A stretch of DNA of 64,000 nt from Candidatus Heimdallarchaeota archaeon (GTDB lineage Archaea; Asgardarchaeota; Heimdallarchaeia; Heimdallarchaeales; Heimdallarchaeaceae): contig DAOVET010000005.1 in NCBI GenBank assembly GCA_030668825.1, forward strand, positions 1,736 through 65,735, written 5' to 3'. Below, in pieces: positions 35,095 to 48,302 of this stretch. Below the pieces are notes generated by a model. It did no database searches. It was not told the DNA's origin and saw only the letters and a program-made list of their open reading frames with translations. Position numbers and translations under genes: made by a program. Numbering within the stretch: the first letter of the stretch is position 1; each line of letters opens with the position of its first letter.

Positions 35095-36534
35095 TTACTT
35101 TTTATCTTCACCCAGTTTCCAGAGGACTCTTTTAGGATTATCTTCAAGAGAAACTCCTGCAGCTTTCAACTCATCCCTTATCTTATCACTCATTCCCCAG
35201 TTCTTCTCTTTTCTATATTCTCCACGGATTTCGACAAGTAGTTTAACTAGTTTTTCAACTAACTCCATCGAAAGGTAACTGTTAAAATCTTCATATAAAC
35301 CGAAAATTGATCTGAATTCGTTGAACAATTCATCAGCTTTGCTGATTACTGCTCCATTGACTTGCTCAGCTTTTCGGAGATAGTCATTGACCTCTCTAGA
35401 ATAATCAAAAACTACAGCAAATCCATTAGAGGTATTGAAGTCCTCATCCATCGCTTTGACAAAATCCTCTCTAGCTTTAGTAATTTTTTCTAGTAAGTCT
35501 TTGTCCAATTCTGAAAGAAAACTTTCATCTACTTTAATATCATTTGCATAATTTTTAGTCAAGAGGACAATATCAAATAACCTGTCAGATGTGATTTGAG
35601 CTTGATCTATAGCGTCTTCTGTAAAGGTAATTGGGCTACGGTAATGGGTTTGAAGGACAAATAAGCGAACAGCATCAGGAGAATAGTGTTGGAGTAAATC
35701 AACAATGTTGACAAAATTGCCTAAAGATTTGCTCATCTTCTCCTTATCGATATTAACATAACCATTATGGAGCCAGTACTTGGCAAAAGGTTTTCCAGTA
35801 AGTGCTTCGGACTGAGCAATTTCATTTTCATGATGAGGAAAGATAAGATCCTGACCACCGCTGTGGATGTCTAAAGTATCGCCAAGGTACATCATAGACA
35901 TTTGGGAACATTCGATACTCCAGCCAACCCTTCCATCTCCCCATGGCGAGAACCAATATGGCTCCCCTTCTTTCTTTTCCTTCCAAAGAGCAAAATCTGC
36001 TGGAAAGCGTTTCTTAGGATTCTCAGCATCTTCTGTACCTTCTTGTAGAATATTTTCTATTTTCTGGTTTGATAGTTTTCCATATTCTTCGAACTTTCTG
36101 ACATCAAAATAGACATCACCACCACTCTCATACGCATATCCTTTTTCTATTAACCCCTCAATGAACTCAATCATTTGGTTAATGTGAAGCATGGCTCGAG
36201 GGTGTACAGTAGCTTCTTTTAGATTTAAACTTGCCATATCCCTTCGAAAATAGCTTAGATACTCCTCTGCAACTTCTAGTACAGCTCTTTGCTCCTGTTT
36301 TGCTACCTCTATCACCCTATCTTCAATATCTGTGAAGTTCATTACATACTCTACTTTGTACCCTCTGTACTCGAGATATCTGCGGATGGTATCAAAAGCT
36401 ATAGCAGATCTAGCGTGTCCTAAATGCATGAGACCATTAACTGTTGGTCCACAATTATACCACTTCACAACACCAGGTTCAATAGTCTTGAACTCTTTAA
36501 GTTGACGTGTAAGAGTGCTGTAAATTTTAATCAT
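35095..36534 (-). CDS. cysS: Cysteinyl-tRNA synthetase
   Basis: 479 aa. CGPTVNGLMHLGHARS (HIGH), KMSKSLGN (KMSKS), and Cys-binding WxxxGWxxEC-like WSIECS. Confidence 0.9.
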   Translation of the reverse strand: MIKIYSTLTRQLKEFKTIEPGVVKWYNCGPTVNGLMHLGHARSAIAFDTIRRYLEYRGYKVEYVMNFTDIEDRVIEVAKQEQRAVLEVAEEYLSYFRRDMASLNLKEATVHPRAMLHINQMIEFIEGLIEKGYAYESGGDVYFDVRKFEEYGKLSNQKIENILQEGTEDAENPKKRFPADFALWKEKKEGEPYWFSPWGDGRVGWSIECSQMSMMYLGDTLDIHSGGQDLIFPHHENEIAQSEALTGKPFAKYWLHNGYVNIDKEKMSKSLGNFVNIVDLLQHYSPDAVRLFVLQTHYRSPITFTEDAIDQAQITSDRLFDIVLLTKNYANDIKVDESFLSELDKDLLEKITKAREDFVKAMDEDFNTSNGFAVVFDYSREVNDYLRKAEQVNGAVISKADELFNEFRSIFGLYEDFNSYLSMELVEKLVKLLVEIRGEYRKEKNWGMSDKIRDELKAAGVSLEDNPKRVLWKLGEDKK

Positions 36535-36657
36535 AAATTAGTTACAGAATCTGTTTAAAAAAGCGTTTCGCTTTAACAGAAGTTAAAATAATTTAGCTTC
36601 TAGTCCTTTTTACTCTAAAAAAATATATAGAACCCATTCCACTTTAAATGGAAGAAA

Positions 36658-37647
36658 ATGACTATATTGGTAACTGGAGCAACTAGTGCAGTGGGATATT
36701 TTATTGCTAAGAAGTTAAGAGAAGAATATCCAAAGACAGAAATCAAAGCATTAACTCGGTCAGATAAGAAATATCCTGCTTTAGAAGAATTAGGTATCAG
36801 TTTCATTAAAGGAAATTTGACAGATAAAGAATCTCTAATCAAGGCATTAAATGGAATAGATGATGTCTATAATGCCGCGGGAGAAGCTAGAGACAATATC
36901 CCCTCAAGATTATATTATGATGTTAATGTGACTGGTACAAAAAATTTGCTTGAAGCATTTGTTGGGAATAATGGGAAAAAATTCTTACATATAAGTACAG
37001 TTGGCATTTATGGTTACAAGGTAAAAAACCAACCAATAAAAGAGGATTATCCAAAAAAATCTGATCACCCTTATCATGAAACTAAATGGATAGCAGAGAA
37101 ACTAGTGTTCAAGTATGCACAAGAGTATGGTTTTTTTGCTTCAGCAGTTAGACCACCTTACATTGTTGGTCCTAGAGATAGACAAGTAGCACCCAAAATT
37201 TTTGATTATCTTTTGAAGGAAAGAAAGATACCTCTTGTTGGAACAGGTAAAGCTGTTGTTTCTTTTGTTCATCATAAGGATGTAGCTAGAGCTTTAGTTA
37301 TGTGTGGAGCTACAGAAAAAGCTAATGGTGAAGCCTTTCATGTTATTGGTTCAACTTGCACTGCTCGGGAGTTATTTGAAATGGCCGGAGAAATTACAGG
37401 AAAAGAACCTGTATTTGATGAAATAAGCTTCCCGCTAGCAATAACTGCAGCTGTTTTTAGTGAAACAATGGCCAGAATAAAGAAATCAACACCAAAAATA
37501 TCCCGTAGAAGAGTAAATCAATTCAGTAGGACAAGAGTATATAGTTTAGATAAAATTAACAAATTAGTGGGTTTTGAACCTGAATATTCTATAAAAGATT
37601 CTTTTCAGGATGCTTTTAACTGGATGAAAGAACAGAAGCTAGTATGA
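36658..37647 (+). CDS. NAD-dependent epimerase/dehydratase (extended SDR)
   Basis: 329 aa. ILVTGATSAVGYFI (GxxGxxG) and YHETKWIAEK (YxxxK). Confidence 0.8.
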   Translation: MTILVTGATSAVGYFIAKKLREEYPKTEIKALTRSDKKYPALEELGISFIKGNLTDKESLIKALNGIDDVYNAAGEARDNIPSRLYYDVNVTGTKNLLEAFVGNNGKKFLHISTVGIYGYKVKNQPIKEDYPKKSDHPYHETKWIAEKLVFKYAQEYGFFASAVRPPYIVGPRDRQVAPKIFDYLLKERKIPLVGTGKAVVSFVHHKDVARALVMCGATEKANGEAFHVIGSTCTARELFEMAGEITGKEPVFDEISFPLAITAAVFSETMARIKKSTPKISRRRVNQFSRTRVYSLDKINKLVGFEPEYSIKDSFQDAFNWMKEQKLV

Positions 37648-37658
37648 TCTATTTGATA

Positions 37659-38384
37659 TTATTCCTCAAAACCATATTTCTTTTCTATTGCATATATTGA
37701 CTTGGGCTTAATTCTGTTAAAGGAACGAAATCTGAATAAATGAAAGAATCCAACAAAAAGCCTTTTGAAACCATAACTTGATTTTCCTGTTAATCTTGGT
37801 CTATGATTGACTTTTATTTCTGCAATTCTGAAACCTTTACTGGTAAGAATTGTTGGGATGTATCTATGTGCCCCCTTTGTTAATTTTAAATCCGAAACAG
37901 CTTCTTTTCTATAAATTCTCAGCATACAATTGTTATCATGAATTATACTTCGATTAATTACCTTATTTAGAAAGTTATAAATTTTCGAGCCAGTTTTCTT
38001 AAGAAATGTATCATTACGTTCAACTCTCCAACCACAAACAAAGTCGTATTCTTCTGTTAAGGCGCTGATTAGATTAGGAATGTTATTTGGGTCATCTTGG
38101 CCATCTCCATCAAGTGTAATGATAGAATCTCCTTCTGCATTGTCAAATCCAGCTGAAAGAGCTGCACTTTTACCATAGTTTTTATCAAATTGAATAATAC
38201 ACAGTTTTTCTTCTTTAGATTTGAGTGAAAGAAGTTTATCCAAGGTAGTATCCTTTGATCCATCGTCTACAATAATTATCTCAAAATCAGTTGTTACCTT
38301 CTGCAATATCTCTTTTAGTTCACGGTATACAGGTATAACATTACCTTCTTCATTATGAACTGGAATAATTGCAGAAATCATCAT
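37659..38384 (-). CDS. Family-2 glycosyltransferase (dolichyl-phosphate sugar transferase-like)
   Basis: 241 aa. ISAIIPVHNEEGNV, IIIVDDGSKD, and ITLDGDGQDDP (DxD) motifs. Confidence 0.85.
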   Translation of the reverse strand: MMISAIIPVHNEEGNVIPVYRELKEILQKVTTDFEIIIVDDGSKDTTLDKLLSLKSKEEKLCIIQFDKNYGKSAALSAGFDNAEGDSIITLDGDGQDDPNNIPNLISALTEEYDFVCGWRVERNDTFLKKTGSKIYNFLNKVINRSIIHDNNCMLRIYRKEAVSDLKLTKGAHRYIPTILTSKGFRIAEIKVNHRPRLTGKSSYGFKRLFVGFFHLFRFRSFNRIKPKSIYAIEKKYGFEE

Positions 38385-38450
38385 TTCAAAATCCTTATTC
38401 TATTTGAAAACAAAAACCTTTCTTTAATCTTTAACTCTAGTAGGTAAAAG

Positions 38451-38526
38451 TGGTGGACCAGTCGGGACTTGAACCCGAGGCCTCATCGGTGCAAGCGATG
38501 CGATCTCCCAACTGATCTACTGGCCC
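38451..38526 (-). tRNA. tRNA-Ala (anticodon TGC)
   Basis: Reverse complement: GGGCCAG TA GATCAGTTGGGAGATC G CATCG-CTTGCAC-CGATG AGGCC TCGGG-TTCAAGT-CCCGA CTGGTCC A CCA. The G3:U70 alanine identity pair is present. Confidence 0.9.
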
Positions 38527-38924
38527 ATGTTGGATTGTCTTCACTTCCTCCTTTTTTTAACATTTCGATATCGAAAAGATTTGTTTTAGTATAAACCTCT
38601 GAAAAATTGACGTGAAAACCACTTTTCTTGATAATATTGTGGTATTACACTTACCGACAAAAATCAGTTTACAGACTCCCGACAAAAACCTTAAGCTTGA
38701 CGATTTTTTGTCTTTTGACCGTTTAAAGCCCCTCCCCACGATTTCCAATGGAAATGGGGGTTCTTTGTAGATTCAGCCCCTCTCTTTAACGAATCCACCT
38801 CTAAGGAAAATAAAATTTATTCTATTAGATTTCTAGTGGAACAATAAACCGTTAAGTAAATATATTAGATGAATTTAAAAGTAAATATTATCTCTGTATA
38901 AATAGGAAAAACTCCGAAGAATAG

Positions 38925-39245
38925 GTGATGATGATGGTAACAATCAGCGAGGCACAAAAAAAACTGCTTGAACTCATTAACAGTAGAAACAGTGTAAAAC
39001 AATTAGATGTAATGAATATTCCAAAAACTCCAAGCAGAATAATGGGAGAAAAAATGTTGAATGCTTTTGCTAGCCAAATATTAGCTGACTGTGAAGGTTT
39101 AGAATGTGATCCCACTATTGAGGATGAATTAATTGAGAGTCTTCTTAGTACTTTAGCATTAGCAGGTGTAGTAGGAATAGATTTAGAAAGAAAACTACTC
39201 GAAATATTAGGATTAATGGAAATAGTAACAGCTGATAGTTCATAA
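38925..39245 (+). CDS. Small acidic hypothetical protein
   Basis: 106 aa with balanced composition. The overlapping opposite-strand ORF (38888-39313) is Ser-rich and low-complexity and looks spurious. Confidence 0.35.
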   Translation: MMMMVTISEAQKKLLELINSRNSVKQLDVMNIPKTPSRIMGEKMLNAFASQILADCEGLECDPTIEDELIESLLSTLALAGVVGIDLERKLLEILGLMEIVTADSS

Positions 39246-39341
39246 GAACAAAAAGTAAGGTCTCTGTCAATGCGAAGGGAGGGAGTCATCATCATTTTAC
39301 TATTATGAGTCATGAAAAAATCTAAATAAGCTATTTTTAAG

Positions 39342-39875
39342 ATGGGTTTGATGATTGGTTTAAAACGTGGTTTGGTTCAGTTAAAACCATATAATCCACA
39401 GTGGGAAGAGCTTTTCAAACAGGAAAAAGAACTAATATCATCAGTAATAGCTGATTTTCTAATTGATATACAGCATATTGGAAGTACTGCTATTCCAAAC
39501 TCTGTAGCTAAACCAATAATAGATATCGCCGTTGCTATTGAATCACTTGATAATATTGAGAAAATCATTATTCCTCTAAAAAATATAGGTTTTATTTATA
39601 GGGGAGAGCAGGGAATACCAGACAGACATATGTTTGTGAAAGGGGGAGAGAATTATAGAACCCATCATCTTCATGTTATGCAAAAAGATCATTATGAATG
39701 GGATAAACATATTCTGTTTAGAGATTTTTTGAAAAAACATCCAAATGATGCGAAACAATATTCTGAACTTAAAAAGCTATTATTCATCAAGTTTGGAAAT
39801 GACAGAGAGAAATATACTGACAGTAAATCAGATTTCATACAAAATATAATTGAAAAAGCAAAGAAGAAGCAGTAA
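39342..39875 (+). CDS. GrpB-family (UPF0157) nucleotidyltransferase-fold protein
   Basis: 177 aa. QHIGSTAIPNSVAKPIIDIAVAI matches the conserved GrpB HxGSTAIPGL.AKPIIDI motif. Confidence 0.75.
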   Translation: MGLMIGLKRGLVQLKPYNPQWEELFKQEKELISSVIADFLIDIQHIGSTAIPNSVAKPIIDIAVAIESLDNIEKIIIPLKNIGFIYRGEQGIPDRHMFVKGGENYRTHHLHVMQKDHYEWDKHILFRDFLKKHPNDAKQYSELKKLLFIKFGNDREKYTDSKSDFIQNIIEKAKKKQ

Positions 39876-39896
39876 TGAATTAATAAAAGAAAATGA

Positions 39897-39971
39897 TGGA
39901 GCCTCGGAAGGGAATTGAACCCTCGACTAATTGATTACAAGTCAATCACTCTACCACTGAGTTACCGAGGC
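39897..39971 (-). tRNA. tRNA-Thr (anticodon TGT)
   Basis: Reverse complement: GCCTCGG TA ACTCAGTGGTAGAGT G ATTGA-CTTGTAA-TCAAT TAGTC GAGGG-TTCAATT-CCCTT CCGAGGC T CCA. Confidence 0.85.
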
Positions 39972-40033
39972 AATACTTTGCAAGGAGTTTTGATGATATT
40001 CGTATAAAAAATATTTTGATTGTTACTATCTTT

Positions 40034-40708
40034 TTATTTTAACTCTATTTTGTCTCGAACTTCAATCCTTCCAACTGTTAGATAAGGTCTAGCAGCAACA
40101 ATTTGAATTTCTTCTACTCTCATAGAACCAATTTTTACATTTCTATATTTCTCAGTTATAATATGGATTAAATTCCTAGCTTCAGTTGTTTCTATTCTGG
40201 CTAAGGATATATGGGGCATATAGAATGGGAAGTATTTTTCTAAATGTGGAAACTCTTCGAAAATCTTATTGAAAATGGATTCAAGATTCTGGTTCTCATC
40301 AAATACTTGTGCAAAAATGATTCTCTCGAAGCAATTAATTCCTCGAATTTCTATGTCAAAAGGTGAGAAACTATTCGCAACTCTTGTCATTTTTTTCCTG
40401 ATTTCCTTGATCTCTACTTGATCCTCCCAGCCAAATTCCTTGAGAGTAATGTGGAAATATATGGGATGAAAATAAGTATGCCTGTGATCAATCCTATCGA
40501 AAACAGCTTGGATTTGTTGGAGGTTTTCACAAATGGAATGAGAAACCTTAACAATAGAAGCTAGAAACGGTGGATTGGTCTTATCATAGAGTTTTCTTCC
40601 AGAATAGATTACGTTATCATCAAAAAGAGGAACTCTATCTTCTAACAGAATTTTACTATAGTGTTCCCAATTCTTCTCAAACAACTCTTCCTGAGCTTTA
40701 ATATCCAT
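40034..40708 (-). CDS. 2H-phosphoesterase superfamily protein (LigT/2'-5' RNA ligase-like)
   Basis: 224 aa with two H-x-T/S-x motifs (HITL and HISL) at the appropriate spacing. Confidence 0.6.
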   Translation of the reverse strand: MDIKAQEELFEKNWEHYSKILLEDRVPLFDDNVIYSGRKLYDKTNPPFLASIVKVSHSICENLQQIQAVFDRIDHRHTYFHPIYFHITLKEFGWEDQVEIKEIRKKMTRVANSFSPFDIEIRGINCFERIIFAQVFDENQNLESIFNKIFEEFPHLEKYFPFYMPHISLARIETTEARNLIHIITEKYRNVKIGSMRVEEIQIVAARPYLTVGRIEVRDKIELK

Positions 40709-40823
40709 TCTTACTCCAATAAACAGATGGTTCTTTGTTGATAATTCTTCCTATGAGAAATTAAAGAATAGAAAAAAAGGTTTAAAAAGAAAAAGAAAGT
40801 AGAACGAATGTAACCAAAAGTAT

Positions 40824-40900
40824 GCCACCATAGCTCAGTCTGGTGGAGCAATCGGCTGTTAACCGATCGGTCGCAAGTTCGAATCTTGCTGGTGGCGCCA
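40824..40900 (+). tRNA. tRNA-Asn (anticodon GTT)
   Basis: GCCACCA TA GCTCAGTCTGGTGGAGC A ATCGG-CTGTTAA-CCGAT CGGTC GCAAG-TTCGAAT-CTTGC TGGTGGC G CCA. Confidence 0.9.
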
Positions 40901-40960
40901 CCCATTTTACAGTTTTTATCGATTTTAAATATGAAATTAAGTATTATATTTTGAATTCCT

Positions 40961-42862
40961 TTGTTTCAACAAATTCTAGAATCCCAATCTACAGTCATTC
41001 GTACCTATAGGATGGGTATTAAATTTGATGGCACAAAAGAGGAAAAGAGAACTCAGGAAAAAGAAGCTAACCTAAGAGTTAAAGGATTACAAATTCAGCA
41101 AGATGATATTTATCATGATGAATCCGCTATTAAAACTGCATTGAATATTGCTAGGACTCAACCGAAACAACAGAGCAAATTTGCTGTAAAAGCAATCCAA
41201 AAAGCAAAGCAGAATTATTCCAATATTGCTGATAGTGCATACTATTGGTTATATTTAGCATCTAAAGGAACAGTTGATAGAGAAAAGAAAGTAGCAGAAA
41301 TTATGAAGTTACTTTTGAATTGGGATGATCAGGCTGTTGAGTGGTTTATTTTTGGAAGATCTCCTAGAGTAGAAAATACTTTGTTTTATAGATGGAAATT
41401 AAAAAGATTATATGTAATTAATTTAATATCAAGTACTAGATGGCAAATCGATAAGTTTTGCACACCTGATATCAAATTTAATTCCTTTCTTCCATTTCTT
41501 ACACAGCAAGAAGTTGAAGATAATATTCATGCTTTTTGCACATTAAAAAGCCAAAAGAAACAAACTAAGAATGTTTCAGACAAAGCTAGGAAATTTATCA
41601 AAAAAATAGAGTTGATTCATGATAACCTTTCTATTGTAGCACCATACCTAACATCTTGGATTAATGTTCCTCAAAAATCCCGATGGAAAAGCTTGAAAAG
41701 ACTGAGTAAAATAATCTCTGATGTAATTGGACTGAAAAATGAAAACCTGTTCTCTGCTCTGAGAGCAATTATTGTTTTCGCACTCTCTCCCTATATTGAG
41801 AAGAATGTCTCTCGAATACTTCAGCATGTATCATCAGAACAAATTGTTAAACCACCCTTTATGAAGAATAGAAGAAGAAACATACCTATCATACTGTTAA
41901 TGAATAAAGATCATGTGATTTTAAGACCAGGCAATTCCAGTCAAATGGCTGAACTAGTAAAGAAAAATGGGATGTTTGATTTAGCTTTTCTACTAAAAAA
42001 ACACACTAGGATTTATGGAACTTTAGTATTTTCATCGAAAGTTAGGAATTTCATCGAAAGAGGAGCTAAGATTAAAGTACTAATGGTACAAAGTGGTTCT
42101 AAACCAGGTTGTAAATTAAGAATTTCAGTTGTTCTTGAGGGGCGCCACTCAATTTTTCTGTCAACAAAATTGACAGAAAATATTAGTAAGCAAATTAAAG
42201 TTAAACAAACTGACGCTCTAGGATTAGATGTAAACAGATTAGGTGAACATATTCTAGCTTTTTCTGTGAAAGCAAAACTAACGAAAGAGTTGAAAGAATT
42301 GATGAAAAGATATAACAGATTAAGCACCATTGAGATACCAAAATTAAGTTCTAGTTTGAAGAACTATGGTCGTCTTAACCATTCCTGTCGCTATGTTAAA
42401 GTTAGAGGAGAACTTCAAAGAATTTATAAGAAAAGAAGTAATCTTCTGAAAGAAATAAAAAATTATGTTACACATTATATAGCCGCTGTAATTATCAAAA
42501 GTAAATGCAAGATTTTCTGTATTGAGGACTTTCGTATAGATCCTAGAGGTAAAAGAGGAGCTTTAGCAAAAGCTATTTACAGTATGCCGGATGATGAGAA
42601 TATTTTTGAAAAGGCAGTTTCAGTAGCTTCCCTTATTCTAAAATACAATGTCTCTTTAATTTCCATCGATCCAAGAAGAACAAGTTCTCTCCATAATAAT
42701 TGTGGTGGTATTCTTAAACGTACATCAAAATCATATGATATAGTCAAATGTAATAAATGTAGTAAACAAGTCAATACTCATACAAATGCTGCATTGAATA
42801 TAAGAGATAAAGGTATGAAATATTATGATTCCCCCTTTCCGCATGCGAGGGGTATGGGTTAA
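40961..42862 (+). CDS. TnpB/Cas12-like RuvC-fold protein with extended N-terminal region and apparently degenerate RuvC-III
   Basis: 633 aa. The C-terminal ~230 aa carry RuvC-I (…KLRISVVLEGRHSIFLS…ALGLDVNRLGEHILAFSV), RuvC-II (KIFCIEDFRID), a TSS motif plus H-x2-C…C-x2-C zinc finger (HNNCGG…CNKC), and an NAA-x-NI RuvC-III remnant (VNTHTNAALNI) lacking Asp. The N-terminal ~400 aa are basic and helical with no recognisable motifs. Confidence 0.6.
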   Translation: MFQQILESQSTVIRTYRMGIKFDGTKEEKRTQEKEANLRVKGLQIQQDDIYHDESAIKTALNIARTQPKQQSKFAVKAIQKAKQNYSNIADSAYYWLYLASKGTVDREKKVAEIMKLLLNWDDQAVEWFIFGRSPRVENTLFYRWKLKRLYVINLISSTRWQIDKFCTPDIKFNSFLPFLTQQEVEDNIHAFCTLKSQKKQTKNVSDKARKFIKKIELIHDNLSIVAPYLTSWINVPQKSRWKSLKRLSKIISDVIGLKNENLFSALRAIIVFALSPYIEKNVSRILQHVSSEQIVKPPFMKNRRRNIPIILLMNKDHVILRPGNSSQMAELVKKNGMFDLAFLLKKHTRIYGTLVFSSKVRNFIERGAKIKVLMVQSGSKPGCKLRISVVLEGRHSIFLSTKLTENISKQIKVKQTDALGLDVNRLGEHILAFSVKAKLTKELKELMKRYNRLSTIEIPKLSSSLKNYGRLNHSCRYVKVRGELQRIYKKRSNLLKEIKNYVTHYIAAVIIKSKCKIFCIEDFRIDPRGKRGALAKAIYSMPDDENIFEKAVSVASLILKYNVSLISIDPRRTSSLHNNCGGILKRTSKSYDIVKCNKCSKQVNTHTNAALNIRDKGMKYYDSPFPHARGMG

Positions 42863-43114
42863 AACCCATCAAGTCTATCCAAACTGTACAATTTAGATAG
42901 CTTCATAGCATTGCGATGGTAAGATTTGAACTATTCAATGTTTTTAATTTCTATGTTTTTATTATTTTGGTATAATTCTCATATAAAGTAATTATAATCA
43001 AGAACTTTAATTTGAAAATCTAGTGAGATCAAGAAAACAGGATTGATTCAACAATATTATCTGTTCGTACTCTAGCTTTAAATATCTTCTAATCATTGTA
43101 AAAGTTGGCTGATT

Positions 43115-43894
43115 ATGAAGAAAATTTCATTTCGAAAACAAATTATCGTTGGTGTTTTAATTGCATTTCTAATAGCGACGATAACAATTAGTTCTGTTTT
43201 TTTATGTGACTTTATTATTGATAAGAAATATGAATTTGAACAGGAGCATTACTTATGGAATTTTGACAATATAACTCTGTTTTCTTCACAATTAGAAGAG
43301 AGAAGTGAAATGATTTTGTATTTTTTTAGTCAAGTATTTACAATATCTAATGAGACATATTATAACTCTATTACTAATGAAACAATTATTCAAATAGAAG
43401 TTGTTCCTTTTAGTATATTTTATAGTCAAAAATCCTCATATGCTATTTGGCATGATATGAAACGGGAGGAATGGCAGTACAAACTAGATGTTCTATCACC
43501 CACTTGGAAACAGAAACCCAATTTTGTAACAAACAGCAGTATATTCAAAACGATTATTTCAGCTTTAAAGGATGATTTAGTTCAAACTCAAAATTGGAGA
43601 AATGCAATTGGGGAAATCACAAGAAATAATGTAATGAATAGAACTGTGCTAGGTTTTGCTTATTACTTGGATTTTATATTTAATGATGGTTCACGTTTTG
43701 AATTTTGTTCACAAAATAATGAGGTCAAATTCTATTATATGCATTTCAAAGATTACTATGTTAATAATGATGGATCCTCTGGTTGGTATACTGATATCAA
43801 TATTCCTGAAGAAACGTATAGGGGAAACCTCACAGGATTGTTTCCACAACATACAAATGTAATAAATGAGATTATTGAACAGTACTCAACCTAG
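43115..43894 (+). CDS. Signal-anchored extracellular hypothetical protein
   Basis: 259 aa. N-terminal TM (IIVGVLIAFLIATITISSVFL) and several N-x-S/T sequons. Confidence 0.45.
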   Translation: MKKISFRKQIIVGVLIAFLIATITISSVFLCDFIIDKKYEFEQEHYLWNFDNITLFSSQLEERSEMILYFFSQVFTISNETYYNSITNETIIQIEVVPFSIFYSQKSSYAIWHDMKREEWQYKLDVLSPTWKQKPNFVTNSSIFKTIISALKDDLVQTQNWRNAIGEITRNNVMNRTVLGFAYYLDFIFNDGSRFEFCSQNNEVKFYYMHFKDYYVNNDGSSGWYTDINIPEETYRGNLTGLFPQHTNVINEIIEQYST

Positions 43895-43903
43895 GTTTAG
43901 CTT

Positions 43904-44401
43904 ATGAATTTCGAAAAGACAGCTGAAATCGAATCTGCTCTTGAACATCCAACAACATTACGGGTGTATCTTTATCTTCGATATCACTTTGATAAATCAT
44001 CTCAAAACATTGGCATTAGAGAAACTCAAAATGCTTTGAAAATGAAGAGTCCTAGTATAGCTAAATGGCATATGGATAAACTTGAAATCGCAGGATTAGT
44101 TGATAAACTATCTTCAAACAGGTATGTTTTAACAGAACTAGGATTTAGTTTACAGCAACGAATTCCAGTCAAGCTCCCTGTTCAAATGGTAAAGGGTTTT
44201 TTTGTACCTAGAATTGTTCTTCTGATTGTATTTCTTATAGTTAGTTGCATTACTACTATTTCAATTTCGTTCTGGAATCCAGCTTTCGGAGCAGCTAATG
44301 GAATACTAACTTTGATTGTAGCATTAAGTCTGTTGATTTGGCATTTTAGAAATCTAAGAAAGGAAATGAAAGTTTTTGATATGAATACTGAAGAGACTTA
44401 A
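43904..44401 (+). CDS. Membrane-anchored winged-HTH protein (hypothetical regulator)
   Basis: 165 aa. N-terminal wHTH-like segment (LRVYLYLRYHF…IRETQNALKMKSPSIAKWHMDKLEIAGLV) followed by two C-terminal TM helices. Confidence 0.45.
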   Translation: MNFEKTAEIESALEHPTTLRVYLYLRYHFDKSSQNIGIRETQNALKMKSPSIAKWHMDKLEIAGLVDKLSSNRYVLTELGFSLQQRIPVKLPVQMVKGFFVPRIVLLIVFLIVSCITTISISFWNPAFGAANGILTLIVALSLLIWHFRNLRKEMKVFDMNTEET

Positions 44402-44519
44402 GATGATTCCTTTCATTGAATAAATAAACTTGGTTATACAATCTTATCTCAAACTGTTTTCAAAGTCTTTATTGGTTTTTCTTTTAATTTCCAGCAGCGC
44501 CATATCCCTCCTTAGAATT

Positions 44520-45191
44520 CTATTTTTGCGAATTTATTTTTTTTTTAGTAAGTACAATTACTATCAAACATAGAGGTAGAGTAACTAGGAAATAATAAGA
44601 TAAGATGGTGGTTTGAGAGGGTTCCTCAGGAAAAGTAAAGGTAGTATATGCACCTGTGTGATTCATATGAATATCCGAGTCATTAACTGAGATTATTGAA
44701 GGAAAATGATGATAGTTATGTTTTCCTATACAATCATCAATGTAAATTCTAGCTGTAAAGTTTCCATTAGGAAGAGAAACCAAAGTATCATTAACTGAAA
44801 GAGTAAAGACAATAAATTCTTCAGAAATTCCGGGATTAATGGTGTGATTTTCAAACATGTCCATAAGGGCACTTGGACCCCATAAATTACCAAAATATTG
44901 CTCATTTTCGAATGATAAATTACCTGTAATAAAAACAAGATTCATATGAGATGTTAAGATGTATAAGATTCTTCCAGAAGGGTTAATAATCTCACATGTC
45001 CCCTCAAATTCAAAAAAAGTCCAATTAGGATAGTTTACTCTATAACTTAGCTTAGGGGGAAGGAAGACGTCAGTTATTCGAGTATATATAATATTCTCAG
45101 AAGTATTTGCTTCGGAAGAAAACATGTGATTGGAAAGCATAACAGTACAAATTAAGGAAAAAACAAGAATTTGTTTAACTAATACTTTCAT
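44520..45191 (-). CDS. Secreted protein with C-terminal TM anchor (hypothetical)
   Basis: 223 aa. N-terminal signal peptide, N-glycosylation sequons, and C-terminal TM plus KKK anchor (LVTLPLCLIVIVLTKKK). Confidence 0.45.
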   Translation of the reverse strand: MKVLVKQILVFSLICTVMLSNHMFSSEANTSENIIYTRITDVFLPPKLSYRVNYPNWTFFEFEGTCEIINPSGRILYILTSHMNLVFITGNLSFENEQYFGNLWGPSALMDMFENHTINPGISEEFIVFTLSVNDTLVSLPNGNFTARIYIDDCIGKHNYHHFPSIISVNDSDIHMNHTGAYTTFTFPEEPSQTTILSYYFLVTLPLCLIVIVLTKKKINSQK

Positions 45192-45561
45192 CGGATATAC
45201 TAAGTTTAAACTACTTATTTAGGTTTCTAAAAAAGTGAATACGAAATTACTTATCATTTCAGATATACCAGCGGCGCCATTCTTCCTTCTTACTTACAAT
45301 CAGTGTTTCAATTTTATTGTGTTTTTATACTCTTTTCTTCATACCCTTCTGAAGCTAGTTTGCCTACTCTGCTTGGTGGTTCAGACGTTGCATTCTTATT
45401 AATGATATGGCAAGCTTAGTAGAGCTAGCTTCCTTTTTCCATCTATCTTTATCCTGTTGTAATTGAGTGTTATCTTGATTTGCACATTGAATCCAAGGTT
45501 TTCAAGAATAGCCTGATTTCTTCTATTGTATTTAACTAGACTAATTCTGATAATCTTCTGC

Positions 45562-46140
45562 TTAGTTTTTACTTTTCTTTTTCTCTTTTCTATTAAAGAT
45601 TTTAACAAAAGGAAAGCCTAAGGAATAAAGAAATAACTCAAATAGAAACGATCCATTCTCTGGTGGTAAACCTTTTAGTCTACTTTCAAAAGCATCTATT
45701 GTATTTCCAAGTAAGTTCCCTATTGTAACCATATCTATGTATAGTTGAATGTCTCGAGCCTTTTGCTCACCATAAGATTCCAATAATTTCTGTCTTGCAT
45801 CTTCTGTAGGTGATCCACCTGTCTCAGCATAATGTTGGGCATAGGCAAGGCCTATAACTTCATCAGGGTCACAAGAACCGAAATCGTACCTCATAATCTG
45901 TTCTATCTCTTCTTCTGTACATCCAAGATTTAATGCTGATTTTGTATGACCCCATTCACAATATCTACAACCATAAACAGCTGTTACAGCTAACATAATT
46001 CGCTCTCTGAACTGTGGAGACAGTCTCTCTGTTTTCCTAGATTCTTTAATCTGAGATCTGTTTCTGAATATTTTGAAAACATCTCGCCTGAATGCTTTGA
46101 AAGTATAAATTCGTTTCTTGAAATATTGTGAACCATGCAT
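45562..46140 (-). CDS. Carboxymuconolactone decarboxylase/AhpD-like family protein
   Basis: 192 aa. GCRYCEWGH matches the AhpD-core CxxCxxxH motif. Confidence 0.65.
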   Translation of the reverse strand: MHGSQYFKKRIYTFKAFRRDVFKIFRNRSQIKESRKTERLSPQFRERIMLAVTAVYGCRYCEWGHTKSALNLGCTEEEIEQIMRYDFGSCDPDEVIGLAYAQHYAETGGSPTEDARQKLLESYGEQKARDIQLYIDMVTIGNLLGNTIDAFESRLKGLPPENGSFLFELFLYSLGFPFVKIFNRKEKKKSKN

Positions 46141-46226
46141 TAAGGTGTTCTTACCGAAGAAAGTTAAAAGACTCTCTATTGTTCAGAACTAATTCAAAAA
46201 TAAAAAGAAAAGAAAAAAGTAATAAA

Positions 46227-47264
46227 TTAAATTTCTGGAAAATGACATGAAACGTAGTGATGTGGTTCTATTTCCTCTAATTCAGGAGTAACTTTCGAGC
46301 ATATCTCTTGAGCCTTGTAACATCTTGGGTGAAATGGGCATCCTGAAGGAGGATTAATTGGACTTGGAACATCGCCCTCAAGAATAATACGATCCATTTT
46401 AATACGAGGATCTGGACGAGGAATAGCTGAAAGCAAAGATACTGAATAGGGATGAGCTGTCTTACGGAACAATTCTCCTGTTGGACACATTTCCATGATT
46501 TTTCCTAGGTACATTACTGCTACTCTATCTGAAACATGTTTGATAACACTGAGATCATGTGCAATAAACATGAAAGTTAGATTGAAATCCTTTTGCAAGT
46601 CATGTAGAAGATTCAAGATTTGTGCCTGTACAGAGACATCGAGAGCTGAAACTGGTTCATCTAACAAAATTACTTCTGGATGAATTGCTAAAGCCCTTGC
46701 AATACCTAATCTTTGTCTTTGACCACCACTGAACTCGTGAGGATATCTTAAAGCATGGTAATCTTCTAATCCTACCTTTGCAAGAATTTCAAGGACTCTT
46801 GATTCTTTTTCTTCATAGAGCATATCTGGATAATGTATATCAAAAGGCTCTTTGATTAGATCAAGAACCATTCTCCTTGGATTCAAACTGGAATAAGGAT
46901 CTTGGAAAACCATCTGTAATTGACGTTTAACAGCTAGTTCTTCTTCACGAGACATAGGTTGGAAGATGTCTATTCCTTTGAAATAAACAGAACCCTCAGT
47001 AGGTTCTTCTAACTTGACAGTAACTCTAGCTGTTGTACTTTTACCACAGCCTGATTCACCAACTAGACCCAGAGTTTCACCTTTGTTAAGAAATAGGTTT
47101 ACACCATCAACAGCCTTAATATTTGCAACCACTCGAGAGAAAAGGATTGACTGTTGACTTACAGGAAACCATTTCTTTAGGTTATCAAGTGTTATAATGG
47201 GTTGTGTTTTTTGGTCCCAATTGGAGAAGAGATCGATTGTTTCATATTCTTTAAGTGTAGCCAT
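46227..47264 (-). CDS. oppF: Oligopeptide/dipeptide ABC transporter ATP-binding protein (OppF-type)
   Basis: [12 protein letters not shown] Walker A, FSGGQRQR signature, [11 protein letters not shown] Walker B, and a C-terminal oligopeptide-type extension with CxxC. Confidence 0.85.
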
Positions 47265-48302
47265 TTACGCTTCCTCCTTTACAGCTTTTTTACTCTCACG
47301 GAGAGCTTCCAAATCTATATGCAAATCTAGTTCCTCGAAATGATGACACGCAACACGACGACCCTTGCCGAACGTAAATTCAGGAGGTCGAACACGAGAA
47401 TAAATCTCAGTTGCATATTTGCATCTTGGATGGAAACGACATCCCTTTGGAGGATTAATTAATCTAGGTACATTACCGGGAATTGTTTCAAGACGTGTCT
47501 TGTCTTTTTCCAGAGATGGAATACTCTCAAAGAGTGCATATGTGTATGGATGTTTGGGATCAAGGAATATATCCTCTGTTAGTCCAGATTCAACTACACG
47601 ACCACCGTAAAAAATATGAACTCGTTTTGTAGTCTCTGCTACGACTCCAAGATTGTGAGTAATGAGCATCATAGCCAAACCTAACTTTTTTTGCATCTCT
47701 TTGATAATTTCAAGAACCTGTGCTTGAATTGTAACATCTAAAGCAGTTGTAGGTTCATCAGCAATCAAAAGACTGGGTTGAAGGGCAAGTGCTCTAGCTA
47801 TAAGAATTCTCTGACGCATTCCTCCACTAAATTGGTGAGGATAATCAGTAATACGTTTTTCAGCTTCGGGAATTCCTACTAGATCCAGAGTTTCAATAGC
47901 AATCTCTAAAGCTTCTTTCTTATTGCATTTTCTATGTAAAGCAATAACTTCAGTCATCTGATCAGATATTTTGAAGATTGGATTCAAGCTTGTCATAGGA
48001 TCTTGGAAAATCATAGCTATTTCTTTACCACGTATCCTTCTCATTTGAAGATCAGGTAATTCAAGAAGGTTAACACCCTTGTAAATAACATCACCAGCAA
48101 CAGTTTTACCATTTTTAGGTAAGATACGTAAAGTGGAATGAGCAGTGACTGTTTTGCCACAGCCTGATTCACCAACAATACCAACAGGTTCACCATAATT
48201 AACGTCGAAGGAAACACCATCTAAGGCTTCAACAACACCGCTCTCAGTATAGAAATATGTGTAAATATTTCGTAAATCTAGTATTTTTTTATCTTGTGCC
48301 AT
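47265..48302 (-). CDS. oppD: Oligopeptide/dipeptide ABC transporter ATP-binding protein (OppD-type)
   Basis: [13 protein letters not shown] Walker A, FSGGMRQR, LIADEPTTALD, and a C-terminal Opp extension. Confidence 0.85.
   Translation of the reverse strand: MAQDKKILDLRNIYTYFYTESGVVEALDGVSFDVNYGEPVGIVGESGCGKTVTAHSTLRILPKNGKTVAGDVIYKGVNLLELPDLQMRRIRGKEIAMIFQDPMTSLNPIFKISDQMTEVIALHRKCNKKEALEIAIETLDLVGIPEAEKRITDYPHQFSGGMRQRILIARALALQPSLLIADEPTTALDVTIQAQVLEIIKEMQKKLGLAMMLITHNLGVVAETTKRVHIFYGGRVVESGLTEDIFLDPKHPYTYALFESIPSLEKDKTRLETIPGNVPRLINPPKGCRFHPRCKYATEIYSRVRPPEFTFGKGRRVACHHFEELDLHIDLEALRESKKAVKEEA

Follow-up and report, generated by a model that had tools for sequence, protein, structure and literature searches.

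A tRNA-adjacent, immobilised IS607-type TnpB of Heimdallarchaeota with a conserved histidine in its predicted RuvC active site and a putative overlapping guide RNA

When a TnpB-like protein lacks one of the three acidic residues of its RuvC active site, has it lost its nuclease activity, or does it possess a different version of that site? This question is posed by an unusually large TnpB-like protein encoded by a Candidatus Heimdallarchaeota archaeon, in a stretch of 64,000 nucleotides (nt) of contig DAOVET010000005.1 (GCA_030668825.1, positions 1,736-65,735), which is termed the window below. The initial annotation, made from the sequence alone, had proposed that the gene specifies a domesticated, nuclease-dead RNA-guided DNA-binding protein or else a new Cas12-like lineage. 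The analysis presented here leaves us nearly certain that the locus is an immobilised IS607-type TnpB plus its omegaRNA, and suggests that the histidine found in place of the missing aspartate is the native state of an entire archaeal clade. The gene and the tRNA gene that precedes it, at the distance originally noted, are:

40961-42862, plus strand: TnpB-like gene, TTG start, 633 aa
40824-40900, plus strand: tRNA-Asn (GTT), found by ARAGORN and by the Rfam tRNA model (69.2 bits), 60 nt 5' of the open reading frame (ORF)

Homologues share residues 12-22 of the protein (VIRTYRMGIKF), which make up the first β-strand of its structural model; the first ATG (M18) therefore lies too far 3' to be the start, in keeping with initiation at the TTG.

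Fold and predicted active site of the TnpB-like protein

The C-terminus of the protein matches the Pfam profile PF07282 (Cas12f1-like TNB) with 30.5 bits against a cutoff of 26.3 bits, while the match to OrfB_IS605 in Pfam is sub-threshold and those to Cas12f2 and IS607-TnpB in NCBIfam are weak. An AlphaFold2 model built on the family alignment (predicted local distance difference test score, pLDDT, 86.3; predicted template-modelling score, pTM, 0.76) places a WED strand at residues 11-22, an all-helical REC lobe at 26-295 and further WED strands at 310-395, followed by a RuvC domain with a zinc-ribbon insertion. This WED-REC-WED-RuvC-TNB-RuvC layout is that of TnpB and Cas12f, and the best structural matches are Cas12f proteins. 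The 422 residues that precede RuvC-I, close to the approximately 430 first estimated, therefore comprise WED elements and a REC lobe of about 270 aa, roughly three times the usual size, which accounts for the length of 633 aa as against about 380-430 aa in known TnpBs. The C-terminal tail, which is encoded by RNA-constrained sequence (see below), is disordered in the model (pLDDT < 50 after residue 625).

To place the active-site motifs we used a phmmer alignment to AsCas12f and a 43-member family profile aligned to CnCas12f1 and the ISFba1 TnpB. The positions obtained, all four of which include residues invariant in the 63 full-length copies considered below, are:

42227-42229, plus strand: codon of D423 in RuvC-I (GLDVNR), from the alignment
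42524-42526, plus strand: codon of E522 in RuvC-II (CIEDF)
42692-42760, plus strand: zinc finger/TNB from H578 to C600 (H-x2-C ... C-x2-C), from PF07282 and invariant columns
42779-42781, plus strand: codon of H607 at the position of the RuvC-III catalytic aspartate, from the alignments

The RuvC fold recognised at the outset is thus borne out in its details: the GLDV motif is preceded by a β-strand (KLRISVVLE, 387-395), the TSS motif corresponds to T574 and S575, and the zinc finger has the ligands H578, C581, C597 and C600, with the invariant R587 and D593 lying within this segment. Of the canonical Asp-Glu-Asp triad, D423 and E522 are present and the third position is occupied by His607. 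This residue (VNTHTNAALNI) aligns with the catalytic aspartate of AsCas12f (ANADYNAARNI) and CnCas12f1 (VNADYNAARNI), and with an alanine in the ISFba1 TnpB chain as deposited (8iaz, DRAFNAA); typical TnpBs have DRDxN there. The N-T-H-T string had been read correctly, including the loss of the aspartate, but it is the histidine and not the asparagine that occupies the catalytic position. On the strength of these alignments the RuvC-III aspartate is replaced by histidine, giving a predicted Asp-Glu-His (D-E-H) active site.

The histidine is conserved across the clade

A word-index search recovered 115 homologues at 31-93% identity, the named ones all from metagenome-assembled genomes (MAGs) of Heimdallarchaeota, and almost all 620-665 aa long. 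A scan of one genome per species yielded 80 loci, with intact ORFs at nearly all of them; in these searches the lineage is found almost only in Heimdallarchaeota MAGs, the exception being one Thorarchaeota-labelled contig. An alignment of the full-length copies shows D423, N425, R426, E522, T574, S575, H578, C581, C597, C600, H607 and N609 to be invariant (63/63). An exhaustive profile search gave 552 cluster representatives of 350-1800 aa, 107 of them at E <= 1e-30, and a search of IMG/VR viral contigs found no relatives of the family. To score RuvC-III we combined the word-index hits with the best 150 of the 552 representatives into a set of 262 proteins, 206 of which were scorable: histidine is present in 199 and aspartate in none, the few others having glutamine or unreliable motif matches. 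The distant members sampled all have N-x-H-x-N/S-A/S at this position. Several long relatives of 1200-1800 aa (P0135, P0139, P0143, P0148, P0158 and P0163) combine the same C-terminal D-E-H TnpB module with N-terminal extensions of 500-1100 aa.

The histidine is therefore old and clade-defining, and its retention alongside an intact aspartate and glutamate is unlike the decay seen in inactivated TnpBs. It appears to be the ancestral and strictly conserved state of the whole clade, including the intact multi-copy elements with both tnpA and tnpB that are described below. A comparable situation has been reported for the RuvC-III-rearranged TnpB branches (RIIIr-4 and others), in which the change of the catalytic aspartate to histidine is conserved across a large branch, some of these branches being restricted to archaea; from this conservation it was concluded that they remain active (Altae-Tran et al. 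2023, PNAS, PMC10691335). By its sequence the locus appears to belong to this already published category of TnpBs with an Asp-to-His change in RuvC-III, sharing with RIIIr-4 the conserved histidine. RIIIr-4 is, however, described as being without a zinc finger and often linked to a RHH (ribbon-helix-helix)/MazE gene (PMC10691335), whereas the Heimdallarchaeota family retains the invariant H578/C581/C597/C600 finger and has no RHH/AbrB ORF among its conserved neighbours, its upstream neighbour being a tRNA gene.

A putative guide-RNA scaffold overlapping the 3' end of the gene

In all subgroups of the family the last ~60 nt of the ORF together with 25-95 nt downstream form a conserved nucleotide module, relative to which the stop codon drifts: it may be a TAG inside an arm of the first stem, a TAA in the loop of the second, as in the window, or lie elsewhere, either further downstream or up to 75 nt earlier. 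That the module is conserved while the stop codon shifts indicates conservation at the RNA or DNA level. In the window the module corresponds to the following elements:

42830-42916, plus strand: omegaRNA-like scaffold, from covariation and per-sequence folds, overlapping the last 33 nt of the ORF
42832-36 pairing with 42848-52, plus strand: scaffold stem P1
42854-59 pairing with 42864-69, plus strand: stem P2, with the stop codon TAA (42860-62) in its loop
42871-42903, plus strand: stem P3, AAG...CTT closing an inner hairpin
42840-46 (CGCAUGC, P1 loop) pairing with 42908-15 (GCAU^UGCG, 3' tail), plus strand: pseudoknot with one bulged U
42917-42945, plus strand: guide-position flank TGGTAAGATTTGAACTATTCAATG followed by oligo-T (42941-45), from orthologue comparison and a shuffle test

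RNAalifold applied to raw MAFFT alignments gave only P1 or P2, since the lengths of P2 and P3 differ between subgroups; hence, we used a hand-specified structure with anchor-based pair counts and per-sequence folds instead. The latter follow one plan, consisting of P1 (CCCCU...AGGGG), P2, P3 closed by AAG/CUU or AAAC/GUUU, and a single-stranded 3' tail that is complementary to the P1 loop, with P2 being absent or different in the largest subgroup (cluster 1). The pseudoknot helix has 7-10 bp in 50 of 58 distinct loop/tail combinations, among which compensatory switches are many: CGCACGU/ACGUGCG, ACACACGU/ACGUGUGU, AUGCACGU/ACGUGCAU, AACGCUCG/CGAGCGUU, CGCAUAC/GUAUGCG and CACAUAC/GUAUGUG. Across a cluster-1 alignment of 50 sequences 95.3% of the cells are paired in the full structure, as against only 22-42% when the partners are slid, and 11 pairs show double changes versus 4.1+-1.2 in shuffles (0/500). 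Among the 22 sequences from the part of the family that includes the window, 108/110 cells of P1 and 147/154 of the pseudoknot are paired, GC<->AU switches occur, and P2 takes the form of more than eight different complementary stems. Even the group of orthologues that share the tRNA-Asn position with the window displays such a switch in the pseudoknot, AUGC/GCAU in the window versus AUAC/GUAU in two orthologous loci (L002 and L003).

A covariance model of cluster 1 finds a homologous site in most other subgroups at E-values of 1e-5 to 0.05, and an Rfam scan of 40500-43400 detected tRNA only, with no known RNA family over the scaffold. The scaffold ends at about 42916, the point at which cluster-1 copies lose similarity to each other, i.e. 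the right end of the element. Thus, as in systems of the obligate mobile element-guided activity (OMEGA) type, a structured putative guide RNA overlaps the 3' end of the gene and extends up to the right end of the transposon. The oligo-T run at 42941-45 may act as a terminator.

IS607-type ancestry of the family

The loci fall into subgroups, of which cluster 1 is the largest with 45 loci and several copies per MAG. Its paralogues within a genome (67-92% aa identity) share a common DNA unit with sharp ends, the full units being ~2.75 kb long with (T)ACCGT-N5-ACTGA...CTTAYCCAATCTTGCCA at the left and ...TTCATAACGTGYGT at the right; such multiple copies with common ends are an IS607 trait, while the orthologous group of the window is single-copy. 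In 12 loci an intact ORF of ~200 aa on the same strand just upstream contains a MerR-type helix-turn-helix (HTH; 2e-9) and a Resolvase domain (6e-21), by which it is predicted to be an IS607-type serine-recombinase TnpA. This gene is frameshifted in 3 further loci and reduced to a 3' remnant in many others. The association of tnpA with multi-copy units indicates that the family is an IS607-family TnpB lineage, a part of which was recently mobile. The earlier statement that the protein is not a transposon nuclease is accordingly mistaken at the level of the family.

Comparison with the IS607 TnpB/OMEGA systems (ISFba1 TnpB in complex with its right-end element RNA (reRNA), 8iaz; ISDra2 TnpB, 8h1j) shows the same WED-REC-RuvC-TNB architecture with a zinc-finger TNB, the same MerR-HTH/serine-recombinase TnpA just upstream in the window family's relatives, and a pseudoknotted guide-RNA scaffold that likewise overlaps the gene 3' end and has the right end of the transposon as its limit. 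Unlike known IS607 TnpBs, the protein has a histidine in place of the RuvC-III aspartate and an H-C-C-C finger, and the window copy is without tnpA and fixed in synteny.

Derivatives of the complete element were also observed elsewhere. Locus L043 (5673-7933) is a tnpB-only form that retains both transposon ends and has lost tnpA by an internal deletion. Locus L028 (4300-8000, syntenic with ~39300-39351 of the window) has a complete cluster-1 IS607-like element, with tnpA and a D-E-H tnpB, in the tRNA-Ala/Thr/Asn neighbourhood.

The window copy is an old, fixed insertion

No TnpA is found in the window, though it is present in 12 related loci: a tblastn search for Y1 or serine TnpA anywhere in the window was negative, in agreement with what had been noted at first, and there is no second copy of the TnpB-like gene in it. 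The copy is therefore a derivative of an IS607 element and not a complete insertion sequence (IS). Between the tRNA gene and the ORF we recognise only the following, with no tnpA intervening:

40916-40960, plus strand: left-end remnant and probable archaeal promoter, from the sequence compared with orthologue spacers and left ends of full elements

The remnant reads TTATCGA in the window and TTACCGA in orthologues, resembling the cluster-1 left end TACCGT...ACTG. A TATA-like TTTTAAATA at 40923-40931, ~30 nt before the TTG start, may be part of a promoter, judging from the archaeal TATA consensus.

The subgroup of the window comprises, besides the window itself, L001, L002, L003 and L060+L068; each MAG has one copy, none has tnpA, and the gene is always just 3' of tRNA-Asn, giving synteny in at least 5 MAGs. 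In L001, L002 and L003 the tRNA-Asn lies 60-100 nt upstream, and L002 also has the tRNA-Ala/Thr/Asn arrangement of the window. Between the window and L002 the TnpB-like protein is 59.6% identical and four neighbouring host genes 49-93%, a similar divergence that is consistent with co-inheritance. L028 has the same neighbourhood and tRNA-Asn with no gene after the latter, and so provides an empty orthologous site. Nei-Gojobori estimates of the ratio of nonsynonymous to synonymous substitution rates (dN/dS) are 0.14 for window-L001, 0.15 for L002-L003 and 0.18 for window-L002 (with dS saturated), and other orthologue pairs are similar. Taken together, these data show that the insertion in the window is old and fixed and that purifying selection preserves its protein. 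Of the suggestion that the gene is domesticated, the part that implies an immobile gene under selection thus stands, given its synteny, single copy and dN/dS of 0.14-0.18; the part that implies a dead nuclease is taken up below.

The closest comparison, of 40869-44468 of the window with L001 (JAUWJS010000165), is mosaic: identity is 84-95% over most of the TnpB ORF but rises to 99-100% at 42669 and stays there across the 3' end of the ORF, the intergenic region and the two genes that follow, which points to a recombination breakpoint within the TnpB gene. An RNA-specific constraint on the 3' intergenic region, which the near-identity might have implied, was rejected, as the mosaic block also spans the downstream genes. 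Farther on, 44503-45267 of the window (~765 nt, with the minus-strand ORF 44520-45191 of 223 aa) is absent from L001, while the L002 homologue of this ORF is found at the opposite flank of the element, between a LigT-like gene and tRNA-Asn. The difference is a local rearrangement or indel beside the locus.

Copies of tRNA segments at the guide position

At least 4 subgroups without tnpA have a tRNA gene directly beside the element: tRNA-Asn (plus strand) upstream, tRNA-Cys (minus strand) 60-80 nt downstream, tRNA-Ser (minus strand) upstream and an intron-containing tRNA (minus strand) 43 nt downstream. A probable fifth case, read from the sequence and not called by a tool, is found at a contig end. 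Some cluster-1 copies lie beside Val or Leu tRNAs, though most are not at tRNAs. Exactly from the right end onwards, where a guide would be encoded, the DNA of several independent lineages duplicates a stretch of the adjacent tRNA gene. In L018 the match is 15/15 nt to the 5' end of tRNA-Ser; in L003 it is again 15/15 nt; L002 has a ~53-nt diverged repeat running from the T-stem of tRNA-Asn through CCA and the trailer to the left-end boundary; and in L061 ~40 nt repeat the 5' half of tRNA-Val(CAC), beginning in the anticodon loop (0/300 shuffles in each of these four cases). The tRNA-Cys group has an antisense copy of the D-arm with 4-7 mismatches to its tRNA; given that this flank does not co-vary with its tRNA-Cys, the idea of a maintained perfect guide was dropped. 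In L017 the element splits one copy of a tandem intron-containing tRNA. The tandem copies (L016 7989-8116; L017 5885-5931, 8032-8135 and 10497-10622) were missed by ARAGORN in bacterial mode. Insertions away from tRNAs are accompanied, in L043, L066, L053 and L021, by a nearby paralogous copy of the insertion site that is uninterrupted, with a 9-bp duplication in L066. Direct repeats of 9 to ~53 nt thus flank several copies of the family, unlike IS607, which according to its description does not duplicate its target (PMC6188088).

The recurrence of tRNA fragments in this flank is genuinely odd. It might reflect the survival only of insertions into duplicated targets, an insertion or repair route that creates long duplications, or tRNA-derived guides that serve homing or regulation. 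One tentative idea, which we regard as rather doubtful, is that the large D-E-H TnpB-omegaRNA modules of Heimdallarchaeia have repeatedly colonised tRNA genes, each time leaving a tRNA segment at the guide position, with the intact tRNA being retained through a long linked duplication. The locus in the window stands between tRNA-Asn and a decayed partial duplicate of its 3' part. While orthologue flanks have a recognisable degenerate copy of the tRNA-Asn T-arm, acceptor, CCA and trailer, the window repeat (GTAAGATTTGAAC versus tRNA GCAAGTTCGAATC) is no longer significant (93/300 shuffles). The candidate guide 20-mer has no second match in the window, the only 14-mer match there (2 mismatches, in a tRNA-Val T-arm) being at chance level. 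As the repeat has decayed and no target was found, the tRNA pattern is context for the window copy and not a demonstrated function of it. No common target-adjacent motif (TAM) could be derived from the bases that precede seven empty-site paralogues or the tRNA matches.

Is the Asp-Glu-His protein a nuclease?

These observations are probably best explained if the locus is an immobilised, tnpA-less descendant of the IS607 lineage, consisting of a left-end/promoter remnant, a gene for a large TnpB and an overlapping omegaRNA scaffold, and having D-E-H as an alternative active site. Under this proposal the 3' end of the mRNA would be processed into an omegaRNA, the pseudoknotted scaffold would bind the protein to form a ribonucleoprotein (RNP), the ~20-25 nt after 42916 would be used as the guide, and the RNP would bind, and probably cut, matching DNA. 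For His607 the favoured reading is that of an alternative residue for metal binding or catalysis, and not of an inactivating mutation. A working site is indicated by the invariance of D, E and H, the retention of the zinc finger and R587, the presence of D-E-H in multiplied tnpA-bearing elements and the published D-to-His branches. RNase H-fold nucleases such as Argonaute/PIWI, with D-E-D-H or D-D-H sites, use histidine in place of a carboxylate; thus, a histidine can replace one carboxylate metal ligand there with catalysis being retained. The domain context is, however, unrelated, and the analogy shows only that histidine is chemically compatible with catalysis. By such comparisons we rate the chance that the D-E-H protein is a competent nuclease as somewhat better than even.

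Several points weigh against this interpretation. The activity of a D-E-H RuvC in a TnpB is extrapolated by analogy. The cluster-1 covariance model matches the window scaffold only weakly (13.8 bits, E = 0.47), and the z-score of its minimum free energy (-1.1) is not significant. The guide flank varies among the orthologues; it does not match tRNA-Asn significantly, and a search of the window yielded no convincing target for it. Finally, L043 has, 535 nt downstream, an uncut 20/20 match to the guide position; the match belongs to a paralogous site without interruption that coexists with the element and spans 300-700 nt downstream of it. The persistence of such a site is unexpected for an efficient nuclease, though a missing TAM would explain it.

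The last point would be accommodated by a nuclease-dead, domesticated binder similar to TldR, in which the D-to-His change abolishes cleavage and the RNP represses or marks a site, perhaps in or near a tRNA gene. Like TldR and other exapted inactive TnpBs (Sigma-, flagellin- and DppD-TnpB), the window copy is an immobile tnpB homologue that has kept its guide RNA and is inherited vertically beside a fixed neighbour; moreover, it is under purifying selection, it lacks the canonical third carboxylate, and several lineages have a copy of part of the neighbouring tRNA gene at the guide position. In TldR and its kind, however, the catalytic motifs are lost or truncated and the guides match a neighbouring promoter. 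In contrast, D, E and H are invariant in the family, the C-terminus is of full length, the histidine is common to multi-copy transposons with tnpA and tnpB, and no conserved guide-target pair was found. The invariance of D423 and E522 is also unlike the decay or truncation of the site in TldRs and inactivated TnpBs (PMC10691335). Further, the guides are not kept complementary to the neighbouring tRNA, with 4-7 mismatches in the Cys group and variable or decayed flanks in the Asn group, and the window target amounts to a chance-level 14-mer match. Hence, we consider such a binder unlikely. The original inference of a dead nuclease is not supported by the substitution, given the 63/63 invariance of D423, E522 and H607, the occurrence of the histidine in mobile relatives and the published arguments for the activity of D-to-His TnpBs, and the TldR analogy on which it drew fails on the features that define TldRs.

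Somewhat less plausible still is an active selfish element homing on tRNA genes, in which a tRNA-derived guide directs the D-E-H nuclease to cut element-free alleles and repair copies the element. Here the linked duplication of a tRNA segment would keep the tRNA functional, and selection would act on the element and not for the host, a corollary that we hold to be just as improbable. The tRNA adjacency of at least 4 independent tnpA-less lineages (Asn, Cys, Ser and intron-containing) and of some cluster-1 copies (Val, Leu), the right-end flanks of L018, L003, L002 and L061 that begin with a tRNA-segment copy, and the split tRNA of L017 would all fit, as would purifying selection on both protein and RNA and the recombination suggested by the mosaic window/L001 comparison. 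Yet the present guides match the L028 empty site or the intact neighbouring tRNA too poorly for an R-loop, the seven empty-site paralogues yield no common TAM, most cluster-1 copies are away from tRNAs, and the survival only of insertions into duplicated targets could give the same pattern.

That the locus is a functionless, decaying IS relic or an unrecognised pseudogene is very improbable: the absence of tnpA and the decayed flank repeat of the window would agree with it, but the 633-codon ORF is intact, as in nearly all 80 relatives, dN/dS is 0.14-0.18 even at saturated dS, the catalytic and zinc ligands are invariant, and compensatory changes keep the RNA pseudoknot within the orthologous group. 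Finally, an effector of a new type V CRISPR (Cas12) subtype, the other early suggestion, can be dismissed almost entirely, as despite its 633 aa and enlarged REC lobe reminiscent of small Cas12s and its best structural matches to Cas12f, there is no CRISPR array within 36000-48000 and no repeat family around the gene, repeat scans of the loci found none, no cas1 or cas2 is among the conserved neighbours, and, unlike in Cas12f (type V-F), the guide scaffold is at the transposon right end and a histidine replaces the third carboxylate.

Among the other genes around the tRNA cluster, the minus-strand ORF 40034-40708 has two H-x-[ST]-L motifs (HITL and HISL), a pair that we take to be typical of 2H phosphoesterase/LigT-like RNA ligases; it is also beside the tRNA cluster in L002, with 50% aa identity.

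Conclusions

The shortcut by which a missing aspartate is equated with a dead enzyme is corrected by this family: a large TnpB clade, part of it mobile, has histidine as its native, strictly conserved residue. For this reason a RuvC chemistry that is naturally different may be looked for in its proteins. With 630-650 aa, a big REC lobe and a compact pseudoknotted scaffold of ~90 nt, they lie between minimal TnpB and Cas12. Given that the Asgard archaea are the archaeal group closest to eukaryotes, they may be useful for questions on how TnpB grew into Cas12- or Fanzor-sized effectors. If the tRNA pattern reflects mechanism and not survivorship, the modules would act as homing elements or regulators guided by RNA, with conserved tRNA-gene sequence serving as the address, combining a histidine-containing RuvC domain with insertion that produces target duplications of 9 to 50 nt, unlike the described behaviour of IS607 or TnpB. 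In that case the tRNA fragment at the guide position would give an RNA-guided element a novel means of selecting essential conserved targets and of surviving in them.

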